The notes under the pieces are model-generated. The model did not search any database and was not told where the DNA came from. It worked only from the letters and a program-made list of their open reading frames with translations. Below are positions 2,285 through 45,170 of a stretch of DNA of 64,000 nucleotides, piece after piece. The DNA lies in the IMG/VR virus record IMGVR_UViG_3300029305_003246, positions 1 through 64,000 of that record; one strand, 5' to 3'. Positions within the stretch are counted from its first letter, which is position 1. The number at the start of each line of letters is the position of its first letter. This DNA is from a virus (lineage: Duplodnaviria > Caudoviricetes). The translations under genes and the position numbers were made by a program.

Positions 2285-3451
2285 ATGAAATATCTATTTA
2301 CAAGTGAATCTGTTACTGTGGGGCATCCAGATAAAATTTGTGACCAAATATCTGATGCTATACTTGATGCAATTCTAGAAAAAGACCCATATGGACGTGT
2401 AGCATGTGAAACTATGGTGACTACGGGTCTTGTATTTGTAGCAGGTGAAATATCTACAAACACTTATGTTGATATTCCTAAAATAGCAAGGGATGTTATA
2501 AAGGAAATAGGCTATGATAATGCAAAATATGGGTTCGATTGCAATACTTGTTCTGTTATAACATCTATAGATGAACAGTCTAACGATATTGCAGTTGGTG
2601 TTGGTGAACTTACTGAAGAAGAAATTAACAAAATTGGAGCAGGTGACCAAGGGATAATGTTTGGATATGCTACTAATGAAACCGAAGAATTTATGCCCTT
2701 ACCAGTAACACTGGCTCATAAATTAGCTAAAAGACTAGAGGAAGTTCGCAAAGAAGGAATAATTCCTTATCTTAGACCTGATGGAAAAACTCAAGTTACT
2801 ATAGAGTATGAAGATGGTATTCCTAAAAGAGTTCATACAGTTCTTATCTCTACACAACATAGTGACCTAATAGATAATGAAACTCTTAAAATAGCTATCT
2901 TTAATCAAGTAATAAAACACGTCATTCCTAGAGAATTATTAGACGATGATACTATTATATACATTAATCCGACGGGAAGATTCGTTATAGGTGGACCACA
3001 AGGTGATACGGGTCTTACGGGTAGAAAAATAATAATAGATACTTACGGTGGAGCTACTCGTCACGGTGGTGGTGCATTCTCAGGTAAAGACCCAACTAAA
3101 GTAGATAGAAGTGGAGCATATTATGCGAGATATGTTGCAAAGAATATCGTTGCAGCAGGCTTAGCAGATAAATGTGAAATCCAAGTGTCTTATGCCATAG
3201 GGGTTGCAAAACCATTATCTATTTTCATTGAAACTTTCGGTACAAATAAAGTTCCTAATGATTTCATATTATCTTTAATATACAAATATTTCGATTTTAG
3301 ACCAGGTGCTATAATAAGAGACTTAGATTTAAGACGACCTCTATATAAACAAGTTGCATCTTATGGTCATTTTGGTCGAGAAGGTTTACCATGGGAAAAT
3401 TTAGATAAGGTTGAAGTCTTAGTAGACGAAATGGTAAACTATTTAGAGTAG
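2285..3451 (+). CDS. metK: S-adenosylmethionine synthetase
   Basis: [39 protein letters not shown]. Confidence 0.98.
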
Positions 3452-19007: not shown

Positions 19008-19265
19008 ATGTTCATTAGTTCTTATTCTCCAAGTGAAATGGATAAAATGAATTATGATGATTTGTCTTATATAGTAGGTTTAATAGTTAATAAAATAATA
19101 GTGAAACCACCTCGATGTCGAATAGATGGTGAGTTTGCTTATATTGATGAATATTCAGGATACTTCCAGTGCGAGCATTGTGGTAGATTTGGAAAACTTT
19201 ATATTGGTAAATCGTTGGATGATTTTAGCGATTGGAGGGAGCTTGATGATAGATTTTTCAGATAG
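19008..19265 (+). CDS. small zinc-finger protein
   Basis: CRID...FQCEHCG. Confidence 0.5.
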   Translation: MFISSYSPSEMDKMNYDDLSYIVGLIVNKIIVKPPRCRIDGEFAYIDEYSGYFQCEHCGRFGKLYIGKSLDDFSDWRELDDRFFR

Positions 19266-19923
19266 AGTTGTTGCAATAAATAAAACTTATCAAGATAAAT
19301 TTGATTTAAAAGTAGTTAATGAGTTATTAAAAAGGGGAGTTCATTATGATGAACTTCCTTCTCATATTAAGCATAAAGCATTATTGAAGTATTGGTCTAT
19401 CTGCACACCAGATGTTGTTAGAAAGGGATTTATTCCTTCACAGTATGTCTCAAATCCAGATATAGTTGTGGTTAATAGGACTCCTACTACAAATGATTTA
19501 AAGTATACCAATACAAATATAGCAAAGAATCCTTCTAATGCAGTCATTAATAAGCTAGTACATGAGTTAGGATTTACTGACCCATATGTAACAAGCTTAT
19601 CCTTCCATGTAACTTCTCATTACAATGATTGGACTTTAGATAAATTAAAAGAAGAATTCCTATTTAAGAACTTAGAGTTTGATAATATAGAAGTTCCTCA
19701 AGTATTTCTTTTACTTGGTAATGATGCCATGAATGTATTCTTTGATACAGGTAGAACTGTCCAAAATATATTTGGGGATATCTACTTGGCCGAATATAAA
19801 GGAGCCAAGCGAATGTTTATACCCATACCTCATACAGCCTACTTACTTAGAGATAAAAATTTATATAAAAATACGGTTCTATTTTTAAGAGCTATCCGTT
19901 CAGTATTGCAACAAATAAAATAA
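19246..19923 (+). CDS. uracil-DNA glycosylase superfamily-like protein
   Basis: IVVVNRTP, FLLLGNDA and PIPHTAYLLR resemble family-4 UDG motifs; GGAGG RBS favours start 19243/19246. Confidence 0.6.
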   Translation: MIDFSDRVVAINKTYQDKFDLKVVNELLKRGVHYDELPSHIKHKALLKYWSICTPDVVRKGFIPSQYVSNPDIVVVNRTPTTNDLKYTNTNIAKNPSNAVINKLVHELGFTDPYVTSLSFHVTSHYNDWTLDKLKEEFLFKNLEFDNIEVPQVFLLLGNDAMNVFFDTGRTVQNIFGDIYLAEYKGAKRMFIPIPHTAYLLRDKNLYKNTVLFLRAIRSVLQQIK

Positions 19924-19936
19924 AGGAGGAATACTA

Positions 19937-20326
19937 ATGCGAGTAGATACTGTAGCACAATTTAGAGATATATTAAAAGATATGGGAGACTTATATGAAA
20001 GAAAAAATGCCGATTATGGTGGAGCTATAGAAAAAGCAATACACGAATTCGGTTATGTATATTCTGCTTGTATGTTATTTAATAAGCTAGAAAGATTTAG
20101 AAATCTTATAAAGAAAGATGATTATGAAGGGAAAGTTGGTGAGTCTTTAGTCGATACACTTTTAGATATGGCAAACTATGCAGTTGAAACAGCTAGAGTT
20201 ATGATGAATGATATGGAATATATAGCCGAAATGCATCGCCTTGATGAGGTTAGAGCATTAACGGTAGAAGAGTTTAATAAACTTCATCCAGATAATGCTT
20301 GGAGTGATTGGGGTGAAGAAATATAA
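19937..20326 (+). CDS. nucleotide-modification-associated DUF1599/Nmad1-like (MazG-fold) protein
   Basis: KNADYG...KLERF...ESLVDTLLDMANYA. Confidence 0.75.
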   Translation: MRVDTVAQFRDILKDMGDLYERKNADYGGAIEKAIHEFGYVYSACMLFNKLERFRNLIKKDDYEGKVGESLVDTLLDMANYAVETARVMMNDMEYIAEMHRLDEVRALTVEEFNKLHPDNAWSDWGEEI

Positions 20327-20826: not shown

Positions 20827-21579
20827 ATGGATAATATGTTTAATGATTTTGAATTAGATTTAGATAATATAGAAATAAAAGGTGATGATGAAGAAGTGAA
20901 AGGTGAAGTAGTTCAACCACCTGTACAATCTAATGGGAATGCAGTTTCTAAAAAAGTTGAATTCAAGTTCGATTTTGGCAAACTTAATATTCCAGGGGTT
21001 ATGGTTGGGGATATAGGTATAGAAGTATCTAGATATCCAGTTGATAAAATAAAATTTACTAAAGCTAAAAGGGAAATGATAAGTATAGTAACACCTCAAG
21101 TTATGGCTATAAAAACTCATTATATAGATGGTGTTGGGTCTGTCTTATGTTCAGGCAAAACTTGTTGCAAAATAGGTGGAGCACCTAGAATAAAATATTT
21201 ATTCCCAGTAGTAGTTTATGAAACTGATTCTAAAGGGAAGCCAGTAAGTAGTAAATTATCTTTTAAAGTTATGGCAGTAGGTGAAGGTATTTATAGAGAT
21301 ATAATGACTTTAGCAGATGTGCAAGATATAACTACAATTGATTTACTTGTTACATGTAAAGAAGAAGTTTATCAAGATATATCTTTAACACCTGCAGGAA
21401 ACTGTAGATGGCAATCTCAACCTAAATTAGTAGAGCAAGTTGTTGAGTTTTGGGGTCAACATATGGAAGATATAATTAAGCCTATAGCAAGAGAAGTTGA
21501 TGAAGAAACGTTATTAGCACAAGCAGGGTTAGATACAGGTGCAAGTTCGTCTGATGTAGATTTTAGTGCATTTATATAA
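20827..21579 (+). CDS. single-stranded DNA-binding protein (gp32-like)
   Basis: His/Cys cluster HY...CSGKTCC, acidic-aromatic tail SSDVDFSAFI, position before ruvC/recA. Confidence 0.55.
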   Translation: MDNMFNDFELDLDNIEIKGDDEEVKGEVVQPPVQSNGNAVSKKVEFKFDFGKLNIPGVMVGDIGIEVSRYPVDKIKFTKAKREMISIVTPQVMAIKTHYIDGVGSVLCSGKTCCKIGGAPRIKYLFPVVVYETDSKGKPVSSKLSFKVMAVGEGIYRDIMTLADVQDITTIDLLVTCKEEVYQDISLTPAGNCRWQSQPKLVEQVVEFWGQHMEDIIKPIAREVDEETLLAQAGLDTGASSSDVDFSAFI

Positions 21580-23545: not shown

Positions 23546-24808
23546 ATGATTATCAAAGCTAAAAATTTCGAAATTATTGATGATTTAGAGTTAGAATTAA
23601 AAGACGGGATTACAGTCATAGTTGGTGCTAGTAATAACGGGAAGTCCAGTATAATTCGTTTACTTAGAGCCATTCTTTATAATCTTAATGGTGATGCATC
23701 TATCCAACAAGGACAAGATGCTTATACTTTGGGTATTATTGATAATGGTAATAAAGTTATAGTGAAAAGGGATATGACGGCATCTAACAAAACAGTTTAT
23801 TCTGTTAATGGCAATTTATTGAAGAAAGTTGGACGTAATATTGTACCCGAGGTTGAAGATGCTTTGAATATAAAAGTAGTTGATATAAACAAGAAAAAAG
23901 TTGAGTTGAACTTCCTAAAGCAAATGGAGTACCCATTCTTAATAGGTGAAACAGGGAGTTTTATTTATGACTTTTTATCAAGTTCTTCAAATCAAACCGA
24001 TTTTTCGGAGTTGTTAAAGTTAATGAAAACTGACCAAAAAGAAATTTCCGATAATAAGAAAAACCTTGAGGGTCAAACTGATGTCTTAAAAGATATGTTT
24101 CAAACTTCTAAAGATACTTATGAAAAGTTACAGGATGTGAATACTGTAACTGATATGATATTCGACTTTGATACTAAAATACAGTATTTGCAAAAGCTAG
24201 AGGATACCATCAAGAGTTTAGAGTATGCCGATGCCAATATCTTTAACTTAAATAATAAAATGGATTATTTACTAGAGCGAATTAAAGTATTAAGCGACCT
24301 TGATAATATTATTTCTAACTATAACGATAATCTAGAAATGCTTAACTTCTGTGACTATATAAAATCTATAGAAGATAAAATATTATCTCAAAGCATTACA
24401 CTTCGTATGTTAGATGATTTAAATAGGGAGCTTGATTTAACTTCTTTAATAGAGCTACAAGATATATGTAATTCTAAGGCTCAAGATTTAATAGATTTTC
24501 AAGGTTTTCTAGATAATATAAATAATATCTTAGAGTTAACAGATAGCTTGAAAAACGTAAACAAATCGAATGAGAAGGTCTTAAATGCTATAAATGAAGT
24601 CTTATTCCTTAAAGACCAATCAACCGAAATTCAAGCCGAATGTAATACTCTATCTAATAATATAAACAAAGTACAAGAATTAGTTCACTCTTTAACTCTA
24701 GAAACGTTTAATAATAATGTAACAGTAGAGAGTTTAGTGAATGTCAAGAGTGAGCTTAATACTTTTGACGTTTGTCCAGTATGCAATTCAAAATTAAAGG
24801 AGGATTAA
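23546..24808 (+). CDS. sbcC: SbcC/Rad50 N-terminal half (Walker A, coiled coil, zinc hook)
   Basis: KAKNF, GASNNGKSS, Q-loop FLKQ, coiled coil ending in CPVC. Confidence 0.85.
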   Translation: MIIKAKNFEIIDDLELELKDGITVIVGASNNGKSSIIRLLRAILYNLNGDASIQQGQDAYTLGIIDNGNKVIVKRDMTASNKTVYSVNGNLLKKVGRNIVPEVEDALNIKVVDINKKKVELNFLKQMEYPFLIGETGSFIYDFLSSSSNQTDFSELLKLMKTDQKEISDNKKNLEGQTDVLKDMFQTSKDTYEKLQDVNTVTDMIFDFDTKIQYLQKLEDTIKSLEYADANIFNLNNKMDYLLERIKVLSDLDNIISNYNDNLEMLNFCDYIKSIEDKILSQSITLRMLDDLNRELDLTSLIELQDICNSKAQDLIDFQGFLDNINNILELTDSLKNVNKSNEKVLNAINEVLFLKDQSTEIQAECNTLSNNINKVQELVHSLTLETFNNNVTVESLVNVKSELNTFDVCPVCNSKLKED

Positions 24809-24809
24809 T

Positions 24810-25067
24810 ATGAGTGATTTAGGTGCTAGATTTATGCAGTTAAAACAAAAGAAAGAGGAGTTAGAAAGAGCTATAATGGAAACTAATGTTAGATTAGAGG
24901 CTCTTCAAAAAGATTTAAAAGATGCCATGCAAACTCTTAAAGATAAGTATGGTGTAGAAACCTTAGAGGAAGCAAAAGCATTATTTAATAAGAAAGACCT
25001 TGAGTATTCTGCTATAGCTAAACAGCTTGAAGAAAAATTATCTGAATATGAAGAATTAGTGAAGTAG
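24810..25067 (+). CDS. small coiled-coil protein, probable SbcC middle segment
   Basis: heptad pattern; lies between the two SbcC halves; own RBS. Confidence 0.55.
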   Translation: MSDLGARFMQLKQKKEELERAIMETNVRLEALQKDLKDAMQTLKDKYGVETLEEAKALFNKKDLEYSAIAKQLEEKLSEYEELVK

Positions 25068-25075
25068 GTGATATA

Positions 25076-25741
25076 ATGCTTTATACTACTTCAAATTACC
25101 AAGCTTTAAGGGATAGAGCCATCAAACTCAATTCCCTTAAAGATACATCCTATAAAAATTATAAGAACACCGAAGTCAAGTATGTTGAAACAGCCGAAAA
25201 ATTATTAAAGGTAAAAGAGCAGCTATTAGTACAAGAGGCATCTATAAAGGTATTAAGAGAAATTATAGATATTATGTCTAAAGAATTTATAGATTCTATA
25301 GTCGACCTTCTTACATTTGCTCTACAAACTATTATTTATGATAAGGATTACTCGGTAAAAATATTACTTAAAGAGTCTAGAAACTCTAAGCAAGCCGAAA
25401 TAATTCTAGTATCTAAGCAAGAGGATGGTTCTATAATAGAATCACCTATTCCAGACAACTGTGGAGGAGGTATATCAGCGATAGTTGGCCTAGTTCTTCA
25501 AATATTCTTCATTCAATATTTTAAGTTAAATAAATTATTAATAATGGATGAGGCCTTAAGTCAAATATCGAAGGAATATATTCCTAATACTATGACCTTC
25601 TTAAAGACTTTATCTAAGGAAAGAGGATTTAAATTCCTTCTAGTATGCCATGATAATAGGATAATAAAACACGCCGACTATATGTATAGAATGGAAATGG
25701 GTAAACTTACTGAAATTGATATGAATGGTGGTGAGTTCTAA
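25076..25741 (+). CDS. sbcC: SbcC/Rad50 C-terminal half
   Basis: signature-like CGGG, Walker B LLIMDEA, H-loop VCHD. Confidence 0.85.
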   Translation: MLYTTSNYQALRDRAIKLNSLKDTSYKNYKNTEVKYVETAEKLLKVKEQLLVQEASIKVLREIIDIMSKEFIDSIVDLLTFALQTIIYDKDYSVKILLKESRNSKQAEIILVSKQEDGSIIESPIPDNCGGGISAIVGLVLQIFFIQYFKLNKLLIMDEALSQISKEYIPNTMTFLKTLSKERGFKFLLVCHDNRIIKHADYMYRMEMGKLTEIDMNGGEF

Positions 25742-26715
25742 TGTCGAGGATAATTGATAAAATAGCATTTGTGGGCGATGCTCATTTTTCATCTAAAACT
25801 CCTTCATCTCGTTTAGATGATTATGCAAGTACTTGTATAGATAAACTCGATAAACTTCTTAACCTATGTAAAAAGGAAAAAATCACTCATGTTGTCCTAT
25901 TAGGCGATTTATTTAACACTCCGACTGATACTCTATTATATGTTAATAGGGTTATGCAAAAATTTAAGGAGTTTGAGCGAAATAATATATTTGTATTTTC
26001 TATATTAGGAAACCACTCTGTGAGCAATATGAAACACGAGAATAAAGATAAGTCATCTGAAGGAGTCTTATATACTTCTAAACTTGTTAGAGAGTTACAA
26101 TATGAGCCCTTCACTTCGCCAGCAGGATATTCAATAGGTTTATATGGTTATCATTATTCTCAACCTATTGGATTACCTTCAAAGGGTGATAAAGTCAATA
26201 TTTGTGTAGCACATAAGGGATATAATGAGTCTTATGATGGAAGTTTAACTAAAACATCATGTCTTGAGTTAGGTTTCAATATTTATGCTTTAGGTCATTT
26301 TCATCAGCCTTATGATATATTAAGGGATACAAATTATATAGTAGTTAGACCAGGAAGATTTATGCGAAATACAGCAGATGAGTTTAATATGACTAATAAT
26401 ATTAATATTGATGTTGTTCATTTCCAAGGTACTCTAGAAAAACCTTTAATAACAACTGAACGTCTTACTTTAGATATTGAGGAGTATTCTAAGGTATTCA
26501 GTACTAAAGTATTAACAAAGAGTATAGCGAATGAAAAATATTTATCTAGTCTTACAGGCCGAGTTCAGGAGTTAATGGTAAAAATGGATATAACTTATGA
26601 TAATAAAGATGATGATATATTTAGAGTTCTAGATTCACTTGATATTGATACTAGAATTAAAAATAATATTGAGATTTATCTTCAATATCAAGGCATTAAT
26701 CGTTCTATAAATTAA
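25741..26715 (+). CDS. sbcD: SbcD/Mre11 metallophosphoesterase nuclease
   Basis: GDAH, GDLF, GNH, AH, LGHFH motifs. Confidence 0.9.
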   Translation: MSRIIDKIAFVGDAHFSSKTPSSRLDDYASTCIDKLDKLLNLCKKEKITHVVLLGDLFNTPTDTLLYVNRVMQKFKEFERNNIFVFSILGNHSVSNMKHENKDKSSEGVLYTSKLVRELQYEPFTSPAGYSIGLYGYHYSQPIGLPSKGDKVNICVAHKGYNESYDGSLTKTSCLELGFNIYALGHFHQPYDILRDTNYIVVRPGRFMRNTADEFNMTNNINIDVVHFQGTLEKPLITTERLTLDIEEYSKVFSTKVLTKSIANEKYLSSLTGRVQELMVKMDITYDNKDDDIFRVLDSLDIDTRIKNNIEIYLQYQGINRSIN

Positions 26716-26736: not shown

Positions 26737-27930
26737 ATGGAAAACTTTAATTTAGAAGAATTAGAATTAAATCTTGAGGATGATTTCGACCTAGATGATT
26801 GCTTTGAATTATCTGCAGTTGAAGAAGATACTGAAGTTATAGAGGAGCTACATTTTAAAGTTCCTACAAGAGACTTTTTAGGTATGTTGAAAAAAGCCAA
26901 AACAGTTATATCTTCATCTGCTAGGGACTTAATAACTAAAGCAGTATGCATGAGAGTAATAGATGGCAATTTAGTTATGAGATGCACTGATTTTGATGTT
27001 TATATGGAGCTTAAATGTCCATTAATGAACAATGCTTGTATACTTGATGAAGTTGTGGTTACTCCTATAGATAACTTAATCCAAGTAGCAAAAGCACTTC
27101 CAGCTACTACTGTTATATTAAAAGATAATGAAGGTAAAATAAGAATCAAACTTATAGGGGGTTCAATTGACCTTGAAACTCTTAATGTAGGCGAAGATAA
27201 ATTCGTTATGAAAGACGAAGTTGTAGAAGATAAAGGTATAGATGCACAAGATTTATACTCTACATTATTAGCATTCTCACCTATAGTTAATGCATCAGTC
27301 AACCCTATGGAAAAAAGAATAATATTTAACGAAGAGGGAGCAAAAGTAGTTTATATGTTTAGCATTACTTCTAGAGAAGGTGATTTCCCTAAATTCGATG
27401 TTAAGACGAAGGATTTATCAGTATTGAAAACTCTATTAACTAATGCAAAAGGTAAATTAAGAACATACCGTACAGTTGATGAAAAAGTGTCTACTAGATT
27501 TGTGATAGAAGATGATACTTTTAGATATACTTTCCTTATAGGTGAAACAAATATTAATAAAATATTAGCAGATAACTTTAAGGAATCTGATTTCTTACAA
27601 GGTGCTTTTATAGAGTTTAGTAAAATAAGTAAATTAGTTGAATTATCTAGTGCATTAAATTATGCTACAGGTAAGGTTAAAATGAAGTTTACTGATATGA
27701 ATGTCTTACAATTACATGTCCCTACTAAAAATGGAGATAATACATTCAAATTAGATGCGACTCCAAATGGTAATTTAGAGGTAGGTACTGAAGTTGAGGT
27801 TCCAGCGAAGTTATTCTTAACTGTATTAAAAGCATTCCAAAAGAGGTCTGTATTAACATTATACTGTAATGCAGGAAAAATCTTATTAGCTAATGATGAT
27901 TTTAAAGGTTTAATACTATTAAATGCATAA
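26737..27930 (+). CDS. dnaN: DNA polymerase III beta-like sliding clamp
   Basis: ~370-aa core, LVMRCTDFDV (cf. ATDLE), alternating alpha/beta three-domain pattern, DnaX in the same genome. Confidence 0.65.
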   Translation: MENFNLEELELNLEDDFDLDDCFELSAVEEDTEVIEELHFKVPTRDFLGMLKKAKTVISSSARDLITKAVCMRVIDGNLVMRCTDFDVYMELKCPLMNNACILDEVVVTPIDNLIQVAKALPATTVILKDNEGKIRIKLIGGSIDLETLNVGEDKFVMKDEVVEDKGIDAQDLYSTLLAFSPIVNASVNPMEKRIIFNEEGAKVVYMFSITSREGDFPKFDVKTKDLSVLKTLLTNAKGKLRTYRTVDEKVSTRFVIEDDTFRYTFLIGETNINKILADNFKESDFLQGAFIEFSKISKLVELSSALNYATGKVKMKFTDMNVLQLHVPTKNGDNTFKLDATPNGNLEVGTEVEVPAKLFLTVLKAFQKRSVLTLYCNAGKILLANDDFKGLILLNA

Positions 27931-28616: not shown

Positions 28617-28682
28617 TTTACGAATATGAAAATAAACGTTTAGAAAAATATAAAGAAAATCTTAATAAGGGAGTTGAATTAT

Positions 28683-29522
28683 ATGCCTTGTAAAATTATG
28701 AAAGTTTATGATGGCAGAGATGTTAAGGAGGTCATACGTGACGAGGAAGTTTTTAGATTAGTAAGTGCCGAAACTGTTAAAGGAAAATACTCAATATCTG
28801 CTAAATATAATGATGCATTCGTCTTAAAAGAGTTATTTGATTTAGGTGAGGAAGTAGTATTTAATGAATGTGTCGATATAATAGTAGAGTATAGAATCTT
28901 ATTACAAAAGATGGTCGATGCAGGTGTATCTGCGAAGTCAGCCACTGCTAAAGCTAAAAAAGAAGCTTTCGATATAGTTCAAGCTAGATATATAGATGCT
29001 TTAGGCAAAGAAAAGTATCTTCAAATATTCCCTATGGTGGATAAATCTAAAGCTAAGACTACAAAGCAAAGAAGTAAGCAGCAAGTAAGAGAAGTTAAGT
29101 CTAAAATTAAAAAAATTAAGGACTTAACTAAAGAGCTTGAACTTCCTCCAGAGGTAACTAAACCTAATGAGGATATAGTTACTCAAATAAATAATGTAAT
29201 ATCTGAAGATGAGACTTTAAAGGCTCTAAAAGATGATAGAGATATAGAAAGTCTTAAACTTGAAAAAGCACAATTAGAAGTTCCAGATGTTGATTTAAAT
29301 ATAGATTTAAGTCTTATTCATAAGGAGGGCAAACCTAATGAAGATGAGAATAGCATATTTAAAAATGAAATGGAAGTATCTAAAGTTCAAGAGGAAAATA
29401 AGAAAGATGTACAAGAATTTAATACAGAAGTTTTTATAAAGCCAGTTAAAGAAGAAGTTCCAGTCCTTGATTTTGGTGATGATTTAGAAGATTTCTTCGC
29501 TAATGAGGATGGATTATTTTAA
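28683..29522 (+). CDS. hypothetical protein with acidic C-terminus
   Basis: ORF after a GTTTA-N16-CGTT motif (28616-28640). Confidence 0.6.
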   Translation: MPCKIMKVYDGRDVKEVIRDEEVFRLVSAETVKGKYSISAKYNDAFVLKELFDLGEEVVFNECVDIIVEYRILLQKMVDAGVSAKSATAKAKKEAFDIVQARYIDALGKEKYLQIFPMVDKSKAKTTKQRSKQQVREVKSKIKKIKDLTKELELPPEVTKPNEDIVTQINNVISEDETLKALKDDRDIESLKLEKAQLEVPDVDLNIDLSLIHKEGKPNEDENSIFKNEMEVSKVQEENKKDVQEFNTEVFIKPVKEEVPVLDFGDDLEDFFANEDGLF

Positions 29523-33263: not shown

Positions 33264-34910
33264 ATGAAATGGAAATATTATTGGTGGAAGTTTAGACAAG
33301 AGTTTTTGGGTGGTTGGGAAGTAATTAAAGAGCTTTGGAGTGAAATAGATATAATCGAAGATGTCAAAGCTACTTATAATAGACTAAAAGAGGATGACGA
33401 ATATGAAGCTTTACAAAACCGTTATCGTAAGAAAGAGATACTACACAAGGGCGATATAATAACTTTTAGAAATCCTCATTGCTATGGCAATGAAATTGTA
33501 GCAAAAGTAGTAAATGTCTATAAGAGTTTTTGTTACGATAAAATGGTAGTTGATATAATAGTTCTATCTTCAGCTCTACATGAAAAAGACACTTTATTAG
33601 CATTTCCTCAAGATGATATAATGAATAATATTATCCAAATGGGAGGTACTTTTTAATGAATAGTGATTTAGAGTATTTTAATAAAATAGAAGAGATGTTT
33701 AATGATAGCAAATTCTGTGATGAAGAAATTGATATTCTATTCCATTACATGTCTTGTCATATTAATAATAGTGTTTATGAATGCATATTCTTAGATGAAT
33801 ATGAAAATATAAGGGGCACTAGAAAGCATAAAGATATTCTAAAAGCAATTAATGATATGTATAATGAATATAAAAATTTATAGGAGGTAACCTTATGAAA
33901 ACTAAAAAAGAGTATTATGAATTTGCCGATACTGAAGCAAGAGAAATAGCTTTAGCAATGCGACCTTGTTTTGCATCTTATAGTCCTACTTCTTACGTTA
34001 AAAGATTCGCCGATAAAAGATATGAAACTTGGGTCTTAACTCTAAAAGATAAAGATATAGTAATACCTTCTGATATACAAGATAAAGTCCATAGAGTATT
34101 TGTCTCAACGTTTACTAATGTAATAAAAGATTATATAGAATCGTTACCTAAGACGACTAATCCTTATGTTTTAAAAGTCTTAAATAAAAAGGAGGGCAAA
34201 TAATATGGTAATACTTAATAGAGATGCATATTGTGATTATTGTGGAGCTTATCTTCCAGATAAAGATGATTTTGTAGAATTTAGACGATATTGTTATTGT
34301 GATATAGATTGTTGGGAAAAATACTTAGTGAAAAACTCCATCCGTTATCCTTACGGGGTACTATTCGGTGATGAAATGTATAACTCATTTGACCACCTAT
34401 ATATAGAATGTTACGATGAAACAATTCAGAGATGATAATTTACATCTCTGAATTTTATGTGTATAAGAAAAATAAAAAGCTAAAATAATAAAGACGTAAA
34501 TATTAGAGGAGGATGATATGCATATGTCAATTAATCCAAGTTTAATAGTGTATATAGATATTATGAATAATACTGAATTACATTTAGAGGTTCTATCGTA
34601 TGATGACGAATATGTTCACGCATTAGAAGTAGGCAATCCATTTGAATATTCCTTTAATGAATATGGCGATATGGATTTATTACAAAAGTTTACTAAAGAC
34701 GAAGAGTATAGCGAAGGTGAGTTCTTCCTATACGACGAAGAGTTATACATTGTAGACGATTACTCTTATCACTCAGGGAGTATATTTGCTAGAAAAGTTC
34801 ATAATGCAGTTTCTATTCCTTTAACGGATGTTGAAATCATCGAAGAATTTGATGATTTCTGTGATTACTATATATCACAAGACAAACTTATTTACAATAA
34901 GGAGGTATAG
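33264..34910 (+). other. cluster of five small hypothetical CDS (33264-33656, 33656-33883, 33895-34203, 34205-34435 Cys-rich, 34518-34910)
   Basis: consecutive + strand ORFs with RBSs. Confidence 0.55.
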
Positions 34911-34911
34911 A

Positions 34912-35718
34912 ATGGATAATAATGAATTTTTATTCGAGGGTATGGTTGAACGTATGAATACCGTATCTATTTATAATAAATCACCCTACATCTTATGGGA
35001 ACAGCACGCTACGGAAAGAATATTTAAGCATAGGGATTTCATAAGTATCGCTCAAATACATTCTCTTAATCCTTCTATTATAGAAGAAGATTTAGTAAGA
35101 GAATTAAAGACTAATTATGTAGATATCGAAGTCGAGTGGATGATGGCCAATCCAAAAGTGACGAACACGAAAGTCATGCCACGCTTTCAAGAGGTCAAGT
35201 GGGTCATTCGTAAACCCTATAAATTAACCTACTTCGATAACAGGACTAATAAAAAAGAGACCGTTATGATAGAAGCTACTATGCAAGGCTCATACAATAC
35301 TTTATTTAGTATGAAACATAGAGATGCAGTGAAAAACATATGGTATAACACCGAAGGCGACGCCAATATGAAGTTCGACGCCATTAATAGGTTTTTAGCA
35401 TCCAAGTCCCCTACATTCAAGTCAGATATTCTCCAAGGTAGATTAGGATTTAATAAGCCTTACCTATTTATAGAAACATTTGTCCTAGCACTTATACATC
35501 CGACGAAGTTTCCTATTACATTCTCAGGTGCATCGAAGGACGGCAAGAATGTAAAATGGACGTACTATAACACGACGCCTAAACATATAGATGTTACCTT
35601 CTATCAATATATGACTATGTATAAAAAGGCACGAGGTTTAGTTAAAATGAAAGGCTTAATAGACCTAGTTCCAGCGAAAGAAATCAAACAGTTAATAGAC
35701 GCTAACAAGGAGGAATAA
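34912..35718 (+). CDS. hypothetical protein
   Basis: AAGGAGGT RBS places the start at 34912. Confidence 0.6.
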   Translation: MDNNEFLFEGMVERMNTVSIYNKSPYILWEQHATERIFKHRDFISIAQIHSLNPSIIEEDLVRELKTNYVDIEVEWMMANPKVTNTKVMPRFQEVKWVIRKPYKLTYFDNRTNKKETVMIEATMQGSYNTLFSMKHRDAVKNIWYNTEGDANMKFDAINRFLASKSPTFKSDILQGRLGFNKPYLFIETFVLALIHPTKFPITFSGASKDGKNVKWTYYNTTPKHIDVTFYQYMTMYKKARGLVKMKGLIDLVPAKEIKQLIDANKEE

Positions 35719-35719
35719 T

Positions 35720-36673
35720 ATGAAGTTAGATTTTAATGAAGGTTATAAACTAAAGGGGGTTAATCAAGATTTTTATGAAGAGTGGGGTCTTAAAGATTCC
35801 CACTCTTTGATGTTCATCTCCGATGCTAAAATAAAAAACACGAGCCAAGTTATGTATCTTACAGTCAACTTGGCCAACCACGAAGTTCTCCTAATCTATA
35901 AATATGTTAAGCTAATGAAAGTGCAATTTGTGAGACTTCTCCACACTCCTATAACGAAGCCACGTAACCTTAGTCTAGAAAATAAAATATTAAAAAGTTT
36001 ATCGAAGCATCCTCAAGTACAGGAGATAGTAACTTCCGAAGAAGATTATCTACAGCATAAAATAACCATTCCTACTACTCCAGACATCTATGCCGATGAC
36101 TTTTATGATACTTTAGATGAAGAATTAGTACAAAAGGTTAATAAAGGTAAAAGACGAAGTAAAATTAAATATACTAAGTATAAGGATAGAATCAACTTCC
36201 GTAAGGCTAATCAAGACGATTATTTAGATATTATTAACCTTATGCAAACTTGGATGAAGAATAAGGCCGACCGTAATGACCTATTTAATAAGAAAACATT
36301 CTCTACAGTAGAAAAGAAATTCCCTATGCTATTACAAGACCCATTCTCGATATATGTTACTACTTTCGACGATGAAATAATAGCATTTGAAGTATTCGCT
36401 AGGGAAGGAGATAAGGTAGTTCAGTTAGTTAATCAAGCTCATCCTTCGCCAGAGTGCCTACAGTGGGGCGAAGATTTAAACAAAGAAATATATGCTTATG
36501 CTCTAAAATGGCATCACCTTCTAACAATTAATGAGTTTACAAAAGATCCTTCTATACGTTTAATACATTATGAATATGCTAGTAATTTAAAAGGAGGCTT
36601 ATGGAACTTTAAAAATATGATGTATTCTAGCAAAGTTCATTTAATAAGAATGAAATTTAGGAAGGAGCGATAA
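35720..36673 (+). CDS. GNAT/DUF2156-like (aminoacyl-tRNA-dependent transferase fold) protein A
   Basis: FRKANQDD..IINLMQTW, IIAFEV, GGLWNFK; paralogous to the next ORF. Confidence 0.5.
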   Translation: MKLDFNEGYKLKGVNQDFYEEWGLKDSHSLMFISDAKIKNTSQVMYLTVNLANHEVLLIYKYVKLMKVQFVRLLHTPITKPRNLSLENKILKSLSKHPQVQEIVTSEEDYLQHKITIPTTPDIYADDFYDTLDEELVQKVNKGKRRSKIKYTKYKDRINFRKANQDDYLDIINLMQTWMKNKADRNDLFNKKTFSTVEKKFPMLLQDPFSIYVTTFDDEIIAFEVFAREGDKVVQLVNQAHPSPECLQWGEDLNKEIYAYALKWHHLLTINEFTKDPSIRLIHYEYASNLKGGLWNFKNMMYSSKVHLIRMKFRKER

Positions 36674-36674
36674 T

Positions 36675-37577
36675 ATGTTAAGTGATGCCCAAGCTTTAAG
36701 ATTTATGAGTAGAGAAGAGTTCAATACCTTCCCTACTTCATCGGTATTTGGAATGTCCACACCAGGTTATGCGATAGCGATTAACTCACCTTCTTTAAAA
36801 TATAAGATATTTAAAGTTAAAGATGATGAAGTACTTGTAATATTTAAGCAGGTTAATATGTTTCAAACTCATTATAAGAGGTTATTAGGTTTCCCAATCT
36901 CTAAGAAAGGCGACGTTAAATTAGAAAAGGCTCTATTTAAGAAGTTATGCACCCTTGATGATGTTACGGAAATGCAACTTCTAGAATCTGACGCTATTAT
37001 ACATGGTTTAGATACTTCTAAACTTGAATATGAAAATGTAGAATTTTTCGTTAATCCGAAGGAGCTTTCGCCTACTATGAATGGAAAGTATCGCCAAAGA
37101 TATCAAATATCTAAGTTTATAGATGATTTGGTATATAGGGACGCGACGTCAGATGATTTTGAGGCCATAATATCTCTACTTAATAGATGGATGTTATTCA
37201 AAGACGATTCCGAAGGTGTCCATTCTAAACCTATCTATAAAAATGTGATTAAGAACCCTAATAAGTATCTATTAGGCGACTACACTACAAAAGTTCTCTA
37301 CTATAAAGACGAGTTATTCGCTTTCAGTGTCAATTATGTAACCGATTCTAAGGTTTATCAAATCACGAATATAGTAGATACCTTCTCCGATACTTTCCCA
37401 AAACATCTAGTAAAAGGTGGAAATCGTATACCTTTTTACTATTTAGTTAAGTCATTTGAGGATTATGAATATATTTCCTTTATGGGTAGTATTAATCCGA
37501 AGTCAAACGTTTTTAAGAATAAGGAATTAGTATACAAGACTTATGAAAAGTTCTATAGAATAAAATTAAAGAAATAG
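36675..37577 (+). CDS. GNAT/DUF2156-like protein B
   Basis: YRDATSDD..IISLLNRW, LFAFSV, YISFMG; paralogous to the previous ORF. Confidence 0.5.
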   Translation: MLSDAQALRFMSREEFNTFPTSSVFGMSTPGYAIAINSPSLKYKIFKVKDDEVLVIFKQVNMFQTHYKRLLGFPISKKGDVKLEKALFKKLCTLDDVTEMQLLESDAIIHGLDTSKLEYENVEFFVNPKELSPTMNGKYRQRYQISKFIDDLVYRDATSDDFEAIISLLNRWMLFKDDSEGVHSKPIYKNVIKNPNKYLLGDYTTKVLYYKDELFAFSVNYVTDSKVYQITNIVDTFSDTFPKHLVKGGNRIPFYYLVKSFEDYEYISFMGSINPKSNVFKNKELVYKTYEKFYRIKLKK

Positions 37578-37589
37578 GAGGAATAAAAT

Positions 37590-38801
37590 ATGTATGGAAT
37601 AAATAGTGAGAATAAAGGTATTATAAACGGTACTGAATGGATGTACCAGTGTCCAGAGTATGTCGAATGGACGCGAGGCTATAATGATTATGAGCATATA
37701 TTCGCCAAATATAGAGGTATACACGAGGAGTTTCCTAACTATTCAGAACAAAGGAAGAAAGATATAGTAGAAGAATTATTTGAAATATATCGTTCTGTCA
37801 ATATATTCCCTATAGCATATTACAGTCAATATGGGGTTGAGAAGGCTATTCAGCAGTTATATAATAATCAGGTTTATTATGACGGGAAAGTCCTTCAAAA
37901 TAAGAGCAACGTTGGATTAAAGCTATGCAAATGGACGCACCCTATTCAACATCAGATAACTAGAAATGATAAAGACCCTAATATGATAGATAAGTTCTAT
38001 AATGATGAAATTTTAAAGAAAGCAATTAAAGGTTCTATAACTACAAATAAAAGTGCCGACCCAGCTCATATATTAAATTTCTTAACATTAATAGGGTCTA
38101 CAGCCACTAACTTTAAGCCATTATCAGCTCAAGCTATGGTAGAAAGATACACGCCTTTTAATGGAGTAGTATTCGATTCATCTCAAGGTATAGGTGGTAG
38201 AATACTTGGAACTTTAACTTCTCAAAAGAATTTAACATACATTGGTTCTGACCCATGGAAGGAAACAAATATATGTAATGCGAAGCTTGGTCAATATTGT
38301 GAGGATGTTTTGGGTAGAAGTAACTCATACAAATTATTCTGTATAGGTTCTGAAAAGATGCGATTATCTAATGAAAATATAGCAGACTTCTCATTCACTT
38401 CCCCACCTTATTTTGATTTAGAGCATTATTCTGATGACGCTACTCAATGTTATAATGCCTATCCAGAGATAACGAAGTGGTTCAAGGCATTTTGTGGAAT
38501 GACTATTAAAAATACTTTTAATATATTAAAACCAGGTGCATTTTACTGTGTAAATATCGCCGATTTTAACTATGGAGGCAAAGTTGTAAACTATGTTAAT
38601 ACATGGAAAAGATTAGCAGAACAAGTAGGATTTGAATATATCCATACGGGTAGAATGCTACTTACTTCTAGAATAGGTGCAGGAGTTTCCAACTCTAAAA
38701 GGGATGTTGAAACTACGAAATCTGAACCTATTTTAACATTTAGAAAGCCGTTGGATATGAATAACTTCGGTAATAATGTGAAAATAGATGTAGATTTTTA
38801 G
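37590..38801 (+). CDS. N4-cytosine/N6-adenine amino-methyltransferase
   Basis: VFDSSQGIGGR (motif I), FTSPPYF (motif IV), LKPGA. Confidence 0.85.
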   Translation: MYGINSENKGIINGTEWMYQCPEYVEWTRGYNDYEHIFAKYRGIHEEFPNYSEQRKKDIVEELFEIYRSVNIFPIAYYSQYGVEKAIQQLYNNQVYYDGKVLQNKSNVGLKLCKWTHPIQHQITRNDKDPNMIDKFYNDEILKKAIKGSITTNKSADPAHILNFLTLIGSTATNFKPLSAQAMVERYTPFNGVVFDSSQGIGGRILGTLTSQKNLTYIGSDPWKETNICNAKLGQYCEDVLGRSNSYKLFCIGSEKMRLSNENIADFSFTSPPYFDLEHYSDDATQCYNAYPEITKWFKAFCGMTIKNTFNILKPGAFYCVNIADFNYGGKVVNYVNTWKRLAEQVGFEYIHTGRMLLTSRIGAGVSNSKRDVETTKSEPILTFRKPLDMNNFGNNVKIDVDF

Positions 38802-38829: not shown

Positions 38830-39008
38830 ATGTGAGCGACGCGAAATCGCTCACCCATATTTTATGGTTTCCTCCATTCGGAAGTTTTGAGCGGTGAAAC
38901 TTCCAATTCTCTACATTTTTTATTATTCTCATATTTCATATATATTTTTCATATTCATTCCTCCCTTAATATTATTTTTTAAGAACCTCAAATTTGGGGT
39001 TCTTTTTT
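38830..39008 (+). ncRNA. candidate small RNA with two hairpins, CCUCC tracts and terminator
   Basis: GTGAGCGA/TCGCTCAC, GGAAGTTT/AAACTTCC, TTTCCTCC, ATTCCTCCC; terminator 38981-39008. Confidence 0.35.
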
Positions 39009-42191: not shown

Positions 42192-42974
42192 ATGTATACT
42201 ATAAATGATATTAAGGTTGAATTATTGAATCCAGAGGAAGTTAAAAACTTTATAAAGAACCACGGGATATTTGCATGTCAGTGTTATATGACGCCAGAGA
42301 AGTTCGCCGAAAGAGTTGGAATATCTTGTTTAAGAGAAGGACATCGTTCAGGTTCTAGAGGTGATATGTTCAAGTTTAGAATTACTTGCCCTAGATTTTG
42401 TGCAGACCAAATAATGAGACATAGTGTTGGTACAGCTATAAATTGTCAATCTCAAAGATATGTAGATATGGATGATAATTTCTCAATATATGTCCCACCT
42501 TTCGTTGAAAATAATGAAGTTTTAAGTGACTTCTATAAAATATATGAGGATAATTGTAAGTTAGTTTATGATAAAGTAAGAAATTTAATGACTTCTAAAG
42601 GTATCACAGGTGAAACAGCTAATGACTTAATGAGAACTATGTTACCGATAGGAGTTGAGTGCAACTTAACTATGGGATTTACTATTGAAGCCTTAATACA
42701 TTTTATGGAAAAACGTTTATGTGTAAGAGCCGATGCACCTATTCGCAAAGTAGCCCAATTAATGAGGGAAGCAGTCCTAGCAGTTGAGCCTAGATATGAA
42801 GAGTTCTTTATACCACAATGTGAAGCTTTAATGTATTGTCCAGAGAAGCATACTTGTGGTGCTTACCCTTCTAGAGAAGAAGTAGAAAGATTACTTAAAT
42901 TAGGTAAAGATTGTTGCAAAAATAACCCTTTAGACGAGTTCTGTAATGGTGATTGTTCTAAATGTAATAAATAA
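42192..42974 (+). CDS. thyX: flavin-dependent thymidylate synthase
   Basis: GHRS, QIMRH...SQRYV, RTMLP, FMEKRLC, CPE..TCG. Confidence 0.88.
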   Translation: MYTINDIKVELLNPEEVKNFIKNHGIFACQCYMTPEKFAERVGISCLREGHRSGSRGDMFKFRITCPRFCADQIMRHSVGTAINCQSQRYVDMDDNFSIYVPPFVENNEVLSDFYKIYEDNCKLVYDKVRNLMTSKGITGETANDLMRTMLPIGVECNLTMGFTIEALIHFMEKRLCVRADAPIRKVAQLMREAVLAVEPRYEEFFIPQCEALMYCPEKHTCGAYPSREEVERLLKLGKDCCKNNPLDEFCNGDCSKCNK

Positions 42975-44543: not shown

Positions 44544-45170
44544 ATGATATACAAACCCGAGCTTACAGCTATTCATTCTGAAAGTCCAAGTGAATCTGCT
44601 AGAATATTAAGCGAGTTAGCTAATGAGTGTGATAAAGTATTAGATTATGGATGTGGATTTGGTAGAAATATTCAATATATGTTAGAAAATGGATTTACTT
44701 ACGTTGACGGAACTGATACTTTAGTCCAATTAGATAAGTTACAAACTGAAATCTTTAGTAATGACCTTTACAAATGGGAATTATTTAAGATGCATAGTGT
44801 TGAGCTTGAGTTAAGTACCTATTTAACGAGTGAATCTTATGATTATGTATTAAGTTCCTTCGTATTAAATGTAGTTACTGACGAGTGGAAAAGTTACATT
44901 TTAGATGATATGAATAGACTTCTTAAACCTAATGGGACATTAATATTAGAAGTTAGAGCTAATGTGAAAGCCAAGTCAAAAGTTCAATTCCATGATGGTT
45001 TCCTTATAAGAAAAGGGAAGTCTAAAACTTTCCAAGAAGTTATCTCTAAAGAAAAGATGGCCACTCTAGTTAGGGAGGCAGGATTCGATATAGAAAAGCA
45101 TATATTTACTTCTAGCAAGCATATAGTTATAGCTAAAAAGATTTTCGATTCTCCGATAGATTGGTTCTAA
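44544..45170 (+). CDS. class I SAM-dependent methyltransferase
   Basis: VLDYGCGFGR, YDYVLSSFVLN, LLKPNGTLIL. Confidence 0.88.
   Translation: MIYKPELTAIHSESPSESARILSELANECDKVLDYGCGFGRNIQYMLENGFTYVDGTDTLVQLDKLQTEIFSNDLYKWELFKMHSVELELSTYLTSESYDYVLSSFVLNVVTDEWKSYILDDMNRLLKPNGTLILEVRANVKAKSKVQFHDGFLIRKGKSKTFQEVISKEKMATLVREAGFDIEKHIFTSSKHIVIAKKIFDSPIDWF

Follow-up and report, generated by a model that had tools for sequence, protein, structure and literature searches.

To our knowledge, the Mom protein of phage Mu is the only established case of an amino acid being moved from a charged tRNA onto DNA (none before April 2026). In the thymidine hypermodification pathways of other phages, 5-hmdU is activated by a kinase and free amino acids are used, not tRNA. 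The acceptors of the characterised DUF2156- and Fem-type enzymes are, as far as we know, lipids, peptidoglycan precursors or small molecules, and never DNA. Mom carries out a Gly-tRNA-dependent N6-adenine modification of double-stranded DNA; it is a homodimer with a single GNAT domain bearing an HTH-like insertion, and residues R111, S124 and R151 are essential (PMC13219725). The thymidine pathways, described in phages M6, ViI, SP10 and PhiW-14, attach amino acids post-replicatively to DNA bases, and the adducts are then tailored (PMC8989533). In DUF2156-type proteins, the tRNA acceptor stem is bound by a helix of positive charge that lies between GNAT I and GNAT II (PMC7334510, PMC6103681), and a basic residue in GNAT II stabilises the oxyanion (K305 in FemX, R914 in ErdS; PMC13219428).

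Here, a block of four genes (g1-g4) was analysed in an uncultured 135-kb phage from the cattle gut, the host of which is probably a member of the Bacillota. The window (i.e. the whole stretch of DNA analysed) comprised 64,000 nucleotides, and the coordinates of all features are listed in Table 1. ORF calls bore out the tight packing of the genes, which are separated by 1, 1 and 12 nt. The ORF called for g1 began at 34828, and the ATG given in the table was taken as the real start. The acidic ORF ahead of g1 had no PHROG match, and the PHROGs search of the small genes upstream of g1 was empty; this ORF shares a 3447-bp contig with g1-g3 in an independent bovine-gut run and is probably co-transcribed with g1. 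From the hairpin patterns, the upstream terminator-like hairpin may mark where the transcription unit begins at its 5' side and the T-run hairpin downstream of g4 is its likely 3' end; no RNA source was present among the sequencing runs listed. The genomic setting of the block is DNA metabolism, and the MetK and DUF1599 genes that the original prediction had placed elsewhere in the window were both located. The clamp of the phage is encoded at 26737-27930.

Table 1. Coordinates of the four-gene block and of associated features in the window
Feature	Coordinates	Strand	Description
MetK gene	2285..3451		elsewhere in the window
DUF1599 gene	19937..20326		elsewhere in the window
Terminator-like hairpin	34423..34454	+	12-pair stem, weak T tail; consensus scan, pattern match only
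Acidic ORF	34518..34910	+	130 aa, no assigned function; stops 1 nt ahead of g1
Four-gene block	34912..38801	+	g1-g4
g1	34912..35718	+	268 aa; ATG start behind AGGAGG
g2 (paralog A)	35720..36673	+	317 aa; soluble tandem-GNAT protein, aminoacyl-tRNA-transferase-like, DUF2156-like
g3 (paralog B)	36675..37577	+	300 aa; sister of A
g4	37590..38801	+	403-aa SPPY amino-methyltransferase
GC-rich hairpin	38832..38854	+	directly 3' of g4
Intrinsic-terminator-like hairpin	38981..39004	+	with T run; pattern scan

The paralogy of g2 and g3 was confirmed by BLASTP (29% identity over 199 aa, E 1e-19), and the two proteins are sister clades in the family tree (SH-aLRT 99). Their translations contained the peptide strings and the GLWNFK motif quoted in the original prediction and, as read at that time, no membrane segments (19-residue hydropathy maximum 1.2 for A and 0.76 for B). 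Both have a pI of about 9, and g1-g3 are all strongly basic. The double-GNAT look was upheld by a structural model (pLDDT 93) and by fold searches. Helical segments at residues 134-157 sit between the two GNAT halves in the model of A; about half of the residues of this segment are Lys or Arg in A and five are basic in B, the inter-domain basic helix being retained in both paralogs. The profile alignment with 2HQY, and that with a PF09924 protein, pass through this helix. The single invariant lysine of the family (K298 in A, K283 in B; constant in 101 family sequences) is located in the final beta-hairpin of GNAT II. Paralog B is nearer to the family consensus than A (match to the A3 profile, E 8.7e-64) and retains the conserved family residues, K283 among them. 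An N-terminal clamp-docking motif was looked for in both proteins, and the case for it is not convincing: in A, the N-terminus belongs to the fold (pLDDT ~84), its alignment with 2HQY starting at residue 2, and in B the QALRF sequence lacks conservation and lies out of register.

Searches of PHROGs with g2 and g3, of NCBIfam with g1-g4 and of the PDB with g2 (phmmer) were empty. About 77 representatives of the transferase family were found, and no fused methylase-transferase form was present among the 77 at E <= 1e-3, because all of them are 368 aa or shorter. Neither g2 nor g3 matched PF09924 in Pfam, 1 of 68 relatives did so (1.7e-4), and the Pfam model also missed family members in two positive-control contigs; the relation was detected as remote homology only (hhalign 86.7%, E 4e-6). 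On these sequence comparisons, the g2/g3 family is therefore a separate family within the PF09924 superfamily, and not a Pfam member. Its proteins would belong to the aminoacyl-tRNA-transferase class, with aminoacyl-tRNA as donor.

The stand-alone DUF2156 protein of Bacteroides thetaiotaomicron (2HQY) is 9-12% identical to the phage proteins and has no known substrate, so that its match to A and B informs on fold and not on function. By structure, the nearest characterised enzymes are MprF-/FemX-like. The activity of these enzymes, the probable Bacillota host and an amidase gene 1.7 kb upstream of the block are in keeping with envelope remodelling, in which A and B would attach amino acids to the membrane lipids or peptidoglycan precursors of a Gram-positive host for superinfection exclusion or lysis control, the methylase being an unrelated neighbour; we consider this improbable. 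The related characterised domain is the C-terminal domain of MprF/aminoacyl-phosphatidylglycerol synthase (PF09924; PDB 4V34-4V36, 9J8Q, 7DUW). MprF has an N-terminal multi-pass flippase domain, whereas A and B have neither a flippase nor a membrane domain, and the A/B family is linked to a DNA-methylase-type gene, whereas MprF lies in a host envelope locus. The FemX/FemABX peptidyl transferases (PDB 4II9, 1NE9, 6SNR) have no sequence similarity to A or B.

As members of the class of tRNA-dependent GNAT transferases, A and B could also act as an aminoacyl-tRNA sink, draining or redirecting particular charged tRNAs, or could aminoacylate protein N-termini and so tag proteins for degradation in the manner of L/F-transferase, and the phage encodes a ClpP-family protease. 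However, the ClpP-like gene adjoins the structural genes and its product is probably the prohead protease, and either activity would leave the methylase linkage without a reason. L/F-transferase and ATE1 were not among the structural matches listed, an absence that excludes nothing. Overall, such a role is judged very improbable.

The expected SPPY methyltransferase with an N-terminal extension of about 170 aa was recovered in g4, with motif I at residues 196-204 and motif IV at 271-274 (S271-P-P-Y274). The protein consists of an N-terminal domain (1 to ~165), the catalytic domain and a 16-aa C-terminal tail that closes with acid-aromatic residues. D196, G200, G202 and R204 do not vary among the aligned phage homologs or among 20 IMG/VR relatives; homologs were found in 29 GenBank phages. 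Matches were obtained to PF01555 (E 1e-3), phrog_12517 (3e-18) and phrog_498/67 ('DNA methyltransferase'). The PF01555 score of g4 (19.4 bits) is below the Pfam gathering cut-off of 26.7, which its IMG/VR relatives exceed (30.0-30.2 bits). Against the PDB, the g4 profile matched 2ZIE and the N4C MTases 8S9M/8S9N in two segments of swapped order. The SPPY motif IV, the glycine-rich SAM motif I and the post-motif-IV region are shared with these beta-class DNA N4-cytosine/N6-adenine MTases (PF01555), but motif IV precedes motif I in the beta class whereas motif I comes first in g4 (a circular permutation), and g4 adds its variable N-terminal domain. By motifs and profiles, g4 belongs to the PF01555 DNA N4-C/N6-A methylase lineage as an SPPY amino-methyltransferase.

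Faint PDB matches of g4 include Trm14 and an rRNA methylase, RNA m2G and m6A methyltransferases can likewise have the motif order I-IV and (D/N/S)PP(F/Y), and tRNA binding would be required of the transferases anyway. These features would suit an RNA target, i.e. modification of host or phage tRNA or rRNA by the methylase and the transferases (e.g. reprogramming translation or blunting tRNA-directed defences). This was given a low probability, since the best profile matches of g4 are DNA methylases, RNA is known as acceptor for no Fem/DUF2156 enzyme and the genome places the block in a DNA-metabolism setting.

The g1 protein is basic (pI 9.3) and has no Pfam, PHROG or NCBIfam family. Its AF2 model (pLDDT 56.6) gave no match in the fold search, the Atlas look-up returned unnamed clusters only, and hhalign comparison with the neighbour clusters from IMG/VR reached probabilities of <=1.4%. 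Six homologs were found (38-99% identity), the longest contigs of which have the same lengths (3447, 145575, 15129) as those of the paralog-A homologs, suggesting that g1 accompanies paralog A in related phages. It is described here as a conserved basic partner of the module, with its role unassigned.

A gene-neighbourhood survey, proposed with the original prediction, revealed that the methylase linkage recurs in very distant IMG/VR phages: a g4-type methylase lies directly upstream of the transferase in 28 of 33 loci of a very distant family branch (only about eight sublineages), and the HMM of neighbour cluster c1 matched g4 at 2e-32. The transferase was seen without the methylase at a single locus, ended by a contig edge. 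Methylases without the transferase were found in cultured phages, in which g4-type genes stand alone within replication and recombination modules. The transferase-methylase linkage is what is new here. No match was obtained among 50,697 GenBank phages by blastn of the block or by tblastn of g1, g2 and four distant family members, and thus no cultured phage with the transferase family was found among them. IMG/VR scans with queries A1, A6, P0043, P0033, P0036 and P0058 returned no relative, and JGI metagenome scans (A4 and P0058) and a genome-contig scan (A1) were empty.

In the IMG/VR cassettes, a PLP enzyme (PALP type) sometimes lies between methylase and transferase, and a spermidine-synthase-like gene lies downstream of the transferase; no homologs of either neighbour were found in this phage. 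Most of these loci are surrounded by auxiliary genes (Hsp20, peroxiredoxin, CHASE2-domain cyclase, lysozyme) and not by replication genes. The additional cassette genes fit a small-molecule pathway too; they count against DNA as the target, as do the auxiliary-gene setting, the PF01555 score of g4 and the small number of sublineages. In such a pathway, the transferases would aminoacylate a metabolite or nucleotide-like compound and the SPPY enzyme (elsewhere also the spermidine-synthase-like and PLP enzymes) would tailor the same molecule, yielding a modified nucleotide, a polyamine-like compound or an immune-signal mimic. Aminoacylating enzymes of antibiotic pathways include Sbb17, PacB and VlmA. 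We nevertheless find this explanation unlikely: PF01555-type (S/D/N)PPY enzymes have a known role in the amino-methylation of nucleic-acid bases, the PDB entries most closely related to g4 are DNA N4-C methylases or modification methylases, g4-type genes occur by themselves in the replication and recombination modules of cultured phages, and g1-g3 are strongly basic.

We propose, with about an even chance of being right, that the block is a tRNA-dependent, SAM-assisted DNA base hypermodification module. An aminoacyl transferase acting with the methyltransferase had been predicted, and this interpretation is partly supported: fold, paralogy, motif conservation and gene linkage are established here, and what we infer is the use of aminoacyl-tRNA, DNA as the acceptor, the order of the steps and the protective role. 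The acceptor stem of a charged tRNA, which would be the host's because the 135-kb phage genome has no tRNA gene, would dock on the basic helix between the GNAT halves of g2/g3, and the aminoacyl group would then go to an acceptor seated in the first of these halves. By analogy with K305 of FemX, K298/K283 may stabilise the transition state. The g4 enzyme would act as a SAM-dependent amino-methyltransferase on the same substrate; a shared substrate is suggested by the linkage of the two enzyme types in very distant phages, together with the occurrence of the methylase on its own. The transferases would elaborate on, or be targeted by, the methylase, with a flipped-out base of replicated phage DNA as substrate, and A and B might act one after the other to attach two residues, or might each attach a different amino acid. 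The resulting adduct, derived from an amino acid and possibly methylated, would protect the DNA of the phage against host nucleases. We know of no experiment or modified base for any phage with this transferase family.

Like Mom, the proposed module would modify DNA through a phage enzyme of the GNAT superfamily, with a charged tRNA as the source of the amino acid. Mom acts alone, however, whereas two tandem-GNAT paralogs, a methylase and g1 occur here. The HTH-like insertion of Mom is absent from the tandem-GNAT model, no DNA-binding insertion was recognisable in A or B, and no sequence relation to Mom was found; the relation to Mom is one of concept and not of homology. PLP enzymes, as in the thymidine pathways, occur in some related IMG/VR cassettes, but are of the PALP type, and no thymidine-pathway kinase or transferase was noticed in this phage (no systematic search).

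More broadly, and only tentatively, the cassette may represent a second, independent tRNA-dependent DNA hypermodification route, in which an amino-methyltransferase-type enzyme and DUF2156-like tandem GNATs (duplicated here) would write an aminoacyl, dipeptidyl or N-methyl-aminoacyl base adduct; this route would be common among uncultured phages, ranging from those of the cattle gut to T4-like viruses of aquatic origin, with no cultured phage possessing it. In the cassette, tRNA-dependent transferases of a different and far larger class are joined by a partner of the DNA-methylase type, and the combination is found repeatedly in unrelated uncultured phages. If DNA is the target, decorating DNA from charged tRNA would be a strategy of phages in general and not a peculiarity of Mu, and DNA would be the first acceptor of the DUF2156 class beyond lipids, cell wall and antibiotics. 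A function would also be suggested for the orphan 2HQY-type proteins, and a new base chemistry would become available for restriction-evasion studies and DNA labelling tools.

The window covers the initial 64 kb of an IMG/VR virus record that is 135,413 bp long and has direct terminal repeats. The window had a G+C content of ~30% and carried genes on the + strand only. Metagenomes of animal faeces and the bovine gut, drawn from 13 studies, contained near-identical DNA, and no tRNA genes were found in the whole 135-kb genome. Pfam annotation of the neighbours placed the four-gene block (g1-g4) within a DNA-metabolism region (see table). The MetK and DUF1599 genes named in the original prediction were both recovered, the latter above the Pfam cut-off and directly 3' of the UDG-like gene (19126-20326); its domain had been cited there for a link to nucleotide modification. 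The phage MetK shared 62-68% identity with the MetK proteins of Clostridia and further Bacillota. ThyX and MetK are both phage-encoded, and no ThyA-type hydroxymethylase was found among the genes annotated here.

Features of the block and its surroundings (window coordinates)
Feature	Coordinates	Strand	Basis or remark
MetK	2285-3451	+	Pfam
Family-A DNA polymerase	4288-6522	+	Pfam
Ligase	15535	+	Pfam
UDG-family gene	19126	+	family-4 UDG-like, weak Pfam and TIGR matches
DUF1599 gene	19937-20326	+	Pfam, 28.3 bits
RecA	22211	+	Pfam
Split SbcC/SbcD	23546-26715	+	Pfam
Beta-type clamp	26737-27930	+	Pfam
Toprim protein	30810	+	Pfam
Weaker terminator-like hairpin	34423-34454	+	upstream of block
130-aa ORF	34518-34910	+	upstream of g1
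g1	34912-35718	+	AGGAGG and ATG start
g2	35720-36673	+	ORF
g3	36675-37577	+	ORF
g4	37590-38801	+	ORF
Terminator-like hairpin	38832-38854	+	3' of g4
Terminator-like hairpin	38981-39004	+	3' of g4
Clamp loader	39287	+	Pfam
ThyX	42192-42974	+	Pfam
Class-I methyltransferase	44544-45170	+	Pfam

The block encodes a basic protein (g1), two putative DUF2156-like transferases (g2 and g3) and a predicted methylase (g4). As originally noted, the genes were tightly packed (gaps of 1, 1 and 12 nt). No membrane-like segments were detected in any of the four proteins. Because of the terminator-like hairpins upstream and downstream, the transcription unit may also take in the 130-aa ORF. The pI of g1, g2 and g3 was 9.0-9.3, versus a median of 5.3 for the longer ORFs of the same phage.

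The paralogy of g2 and g3 was confirmed: they are 29% identical across a 199-residue alignment (E 1e-19). The structure of g2 was modelled with AlphaFold2 (pLDDT 93, pTM 0.89), using as input A3, an alignment of 68 of 77 family representatives. The suspected double-GNAT fold was borne out by Foldseek, which matched the model at E ~1e-8 or better to 2HQY (a stand-alone DUF2156 protein), MprF synthase domains, FemX, and the aminoacyl-tRNA-dependent peptide synthases Sba18 and Sbb17. In a PDB profile search with A3, 2HQY ranked first with a remote match (E 0.026). Among 401 sampled Bacillota genomes, 5 encoded proteins of ~300 aa that the A3 profile matched; the two that were checked were clear PF09924 members (9e-60 and 7.5e-28), and hhalign of A3 against one Bacillota PF09924 protein gave a probability of 86.7% (E 4e-6). 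The A3/PF09924-type alignment had at its core the basic helix that separates the GNAT halves, which is very rich in Lys and Arg in g2 and moderately rich in g3; aminoacyl-tRNA transferases share this helix as the element that binds the tRNA acceptor stem (PMC7334510, PMC6103681). The Pfam PF09924 model missed g2 and g3, as it did their relatives in the two contigs used as controls, which sets them apart as a family of their own in the superfamily. Members of this fold class draw amino acids from charged tRNA. Tagging of tRNA or protein by g2/g3 is one of the main rivals to acylation of DNA bases. In two Bacillota genomes (L084:1171-2954 and L086:189-2127), a stand-alone PF09924 (DUF2156) gene adjoins an Acetyltransf_9 GNAT gene, fused to an SCP2 domain in one of them, a pairing in cells that may be relevant to the role of 2HQY-type proteins.

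Close relatives of g2 (48-92% identical) and g3 (52-96%) obtained by word-indexed search were all unnamed metagenomic proteins. An exhaustive HMM search with the joint g2/g3 profile yielded the 77 representatives (7 of them fragments), each ≤368 aa and most of 260-368 aa. Across 101 aligned family sequences, a single residue was fully invariant: K298 of g2, which corresponds to K283 of g3 and lies in the final GNAT II hairpin. Other conserved positions kept in g2/g3 were K61/K58, R72/R69, P77/P74, T79/S76, E87/E84, D167/D161, W178/W172 and K182/K176, and g3 was nearer to the family consensus than g2. The oxyanion is stabilised by FemX K305 and ErdS R914 at a comparable place (PMC13219428), and K298 may be their equivalent.

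In a quick maximum-likelihood tree, the g2 and g3 groups were sister clades (SH-aLRT 99), which places the duplication inside this phage lineage. Equal longest contigs were recorded for the g2/g3 homologs P0019 and P0107 (99,970 bp) and P0020 and P0027 (2,872 bp), and for g1 and g2 homologs (3,447, 145,575 and 15,129 bp), suggesting that g1 and both transferase copies travel together in relatives down to ~48% identity. The contig of 3,447 bp comes from an independent bovine-gut run and covers the 130-aa ORF, g1-g3 and the beginning of g4; relative to the window it has 3% substitutions and one +1 and one -1 indel that compensate each other. In this one run, the insertion and deletion lie three bases apart in g2 (window 35766-35769) among clustered substitutions; the reading frame is kept across the pair, which suggests selection on the protein. 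No cultured phage carrying the transferase family was found by tblastn of family members against GenBank phages.

The last gene had been read as an SPPY methyltransferase, and its alignment indeed contained S271-P-P-Y274 with motif I (D196, G200, G202, R204), a YIGxDP motif and the post-motif-IV region. The Pfam N6_N4_Mtase match was sub-threshold, and PHROGs returned phrog_12517 (3e-18) and two 'DNA methyltransferase' families. In a PDB profile search, two segments in swapped order matched the modification methylase 2ZIE as well as 8S9M and 8S9N, both DNA N4-cytosine methyltransferases; g4 is thus related to the beta-class DNA amino-methyltransferases by circular permutation. Within its PF01555 lineage, (S/D/N)PPY methyltransferases modify the exocyclic amines of bases in DNA. 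RNA as the target of the g2-g4 enzymes is a further main rival. Homologs of g4 were found by tblastn in 29 GenBank phages: full-length in Bacteroides phages SJC03 and DAC (31% identity, N-terminal domain included), whereas those of Vibrio, Mammaliicoccus and Staphylococcus phages cover the catalytic domain alone and neighbour helicase, exonuclease and dCMP-deaminase genes.

The C-terminus of g4 carries a 16-residue extension, absent from aligned homologs, which ends in an acid-aromatic tail and could serve for docking to the replisome or clamp. Short tails of this kind, with a terminal Phe, end several replication-region proteins: the family-A polymerase, g4, the class-I methyltransferase and ORF 133775-135214 (outside the window). 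ORFs 20827-21579 and 28674-29522 in the window, and 133196-133762 outside it, were also noted for their C-termini, and one ORF of the phage ends in QMSLF, a classic beta-clamp pentapeptide. The tails may form a shared docking code for the beta-type clamp or the phage polymerase.

Most collection scans for relatives returned none; 33 IMG/VR loci (L092-L124) were retrieved with an alignment of the P0073 branch of the family. Their transferases, one family member in each locus, were ~15-20% identical to g2/g3 and lay across the deepest split of the family tree. A gene-neighbourhood survey placed a g4 homolog directly upstream of the transferase, or two genes upstream where a PALP-type PLP enzyme intervenes, in 28 of the 33 loci (phmmer E 2.6e-31 to 2.9e-7, spanning g4 residues 155-387). 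Contig boundaries left the upstream side unreadable in L111 and L118 and incomplete in L112 and L114; in L121 (contig of L091), Rad50, Mre11, DenV, UvsW, UvsY and gp23 lie upstream and the contig breaks off within the transferase gene. At 30 bits, the IMG/VR methylases pass the Pfam cut-off, and they share with g4 exactly the same motifs (FTSPPYF, DxSxGxGxR, YIGxDP); among all proteins of this phage, an HMM of their cluster matched g4 alone (2e-32). In SJC03 and in the Vibrio and Mammaliicoccus phages, the g4-type methylase was present and the transferase family absent, with positive controls matched. The transferase thus nearly always occurs with a g4-type methylase, which can occur alone, a pattern expected if the transferase adds a step to methylase action or recognition. 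Envelope remodelling, with the methylase as an unrelated neighbour, is also a main rival.

The cassette in these loci (e.g. L115:1876-6770) comprises the SPPY methylase, the optional PLP enzyme, the transferase and a PF01564 gene, with no tandem transferase duplication. This spermidine-synthase-like gene was downstream in all 26 readable loci. Together with the PLP genes and the auxiliary-gene surroundings, it gives some support to a small-molecule pathway, likewise among the main rivals; no counterpart of the spermidine-synthase-like gene or the PLP enzyme was found in this phage's proteome. A 620-630-aa protein with CHASE2 and adenylate/guanylate cyclase domains (L097:571-2454; cluster c10, in 9 IMG/VR loci) is encoded a few genes upstream of the cassette, adjoining Hsp20 and peroxiredoxin genes.

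The fold class, the paralogy, the class features of both copies, the methylase lineage of g4 with its intact motifs and the linkage in distant phages are established here. For the predicted aminoacyl transferase acting with the methyltransferase on DNA, the fold class, methylase lineage and gene linkage lend partial support, with DNA as the proposed acceptor. No paper tying DUF2156-type enzymes to phages or to DNA modification was found in the literature searched. The phage GNAT Mom transfers glycine from Gly-tRNA to N6-adenine in dsDNA, and the product then rearranges to a carbamoylmethyl adduct (PMC13219725). Under DNA-base acylation, g2 and g3 would use host aminoacyl-tRNA to acylate a base in phage DNA jointly with g4, whose part may be base flipping, base marking or methylation of the adduct; g2 and g3 may act in sequence, like FemA and FemB, or each bring a different amino acid. 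In this scheme, which as a whole has roughly an even chance, the product would shield phage DNA from host nucleases.
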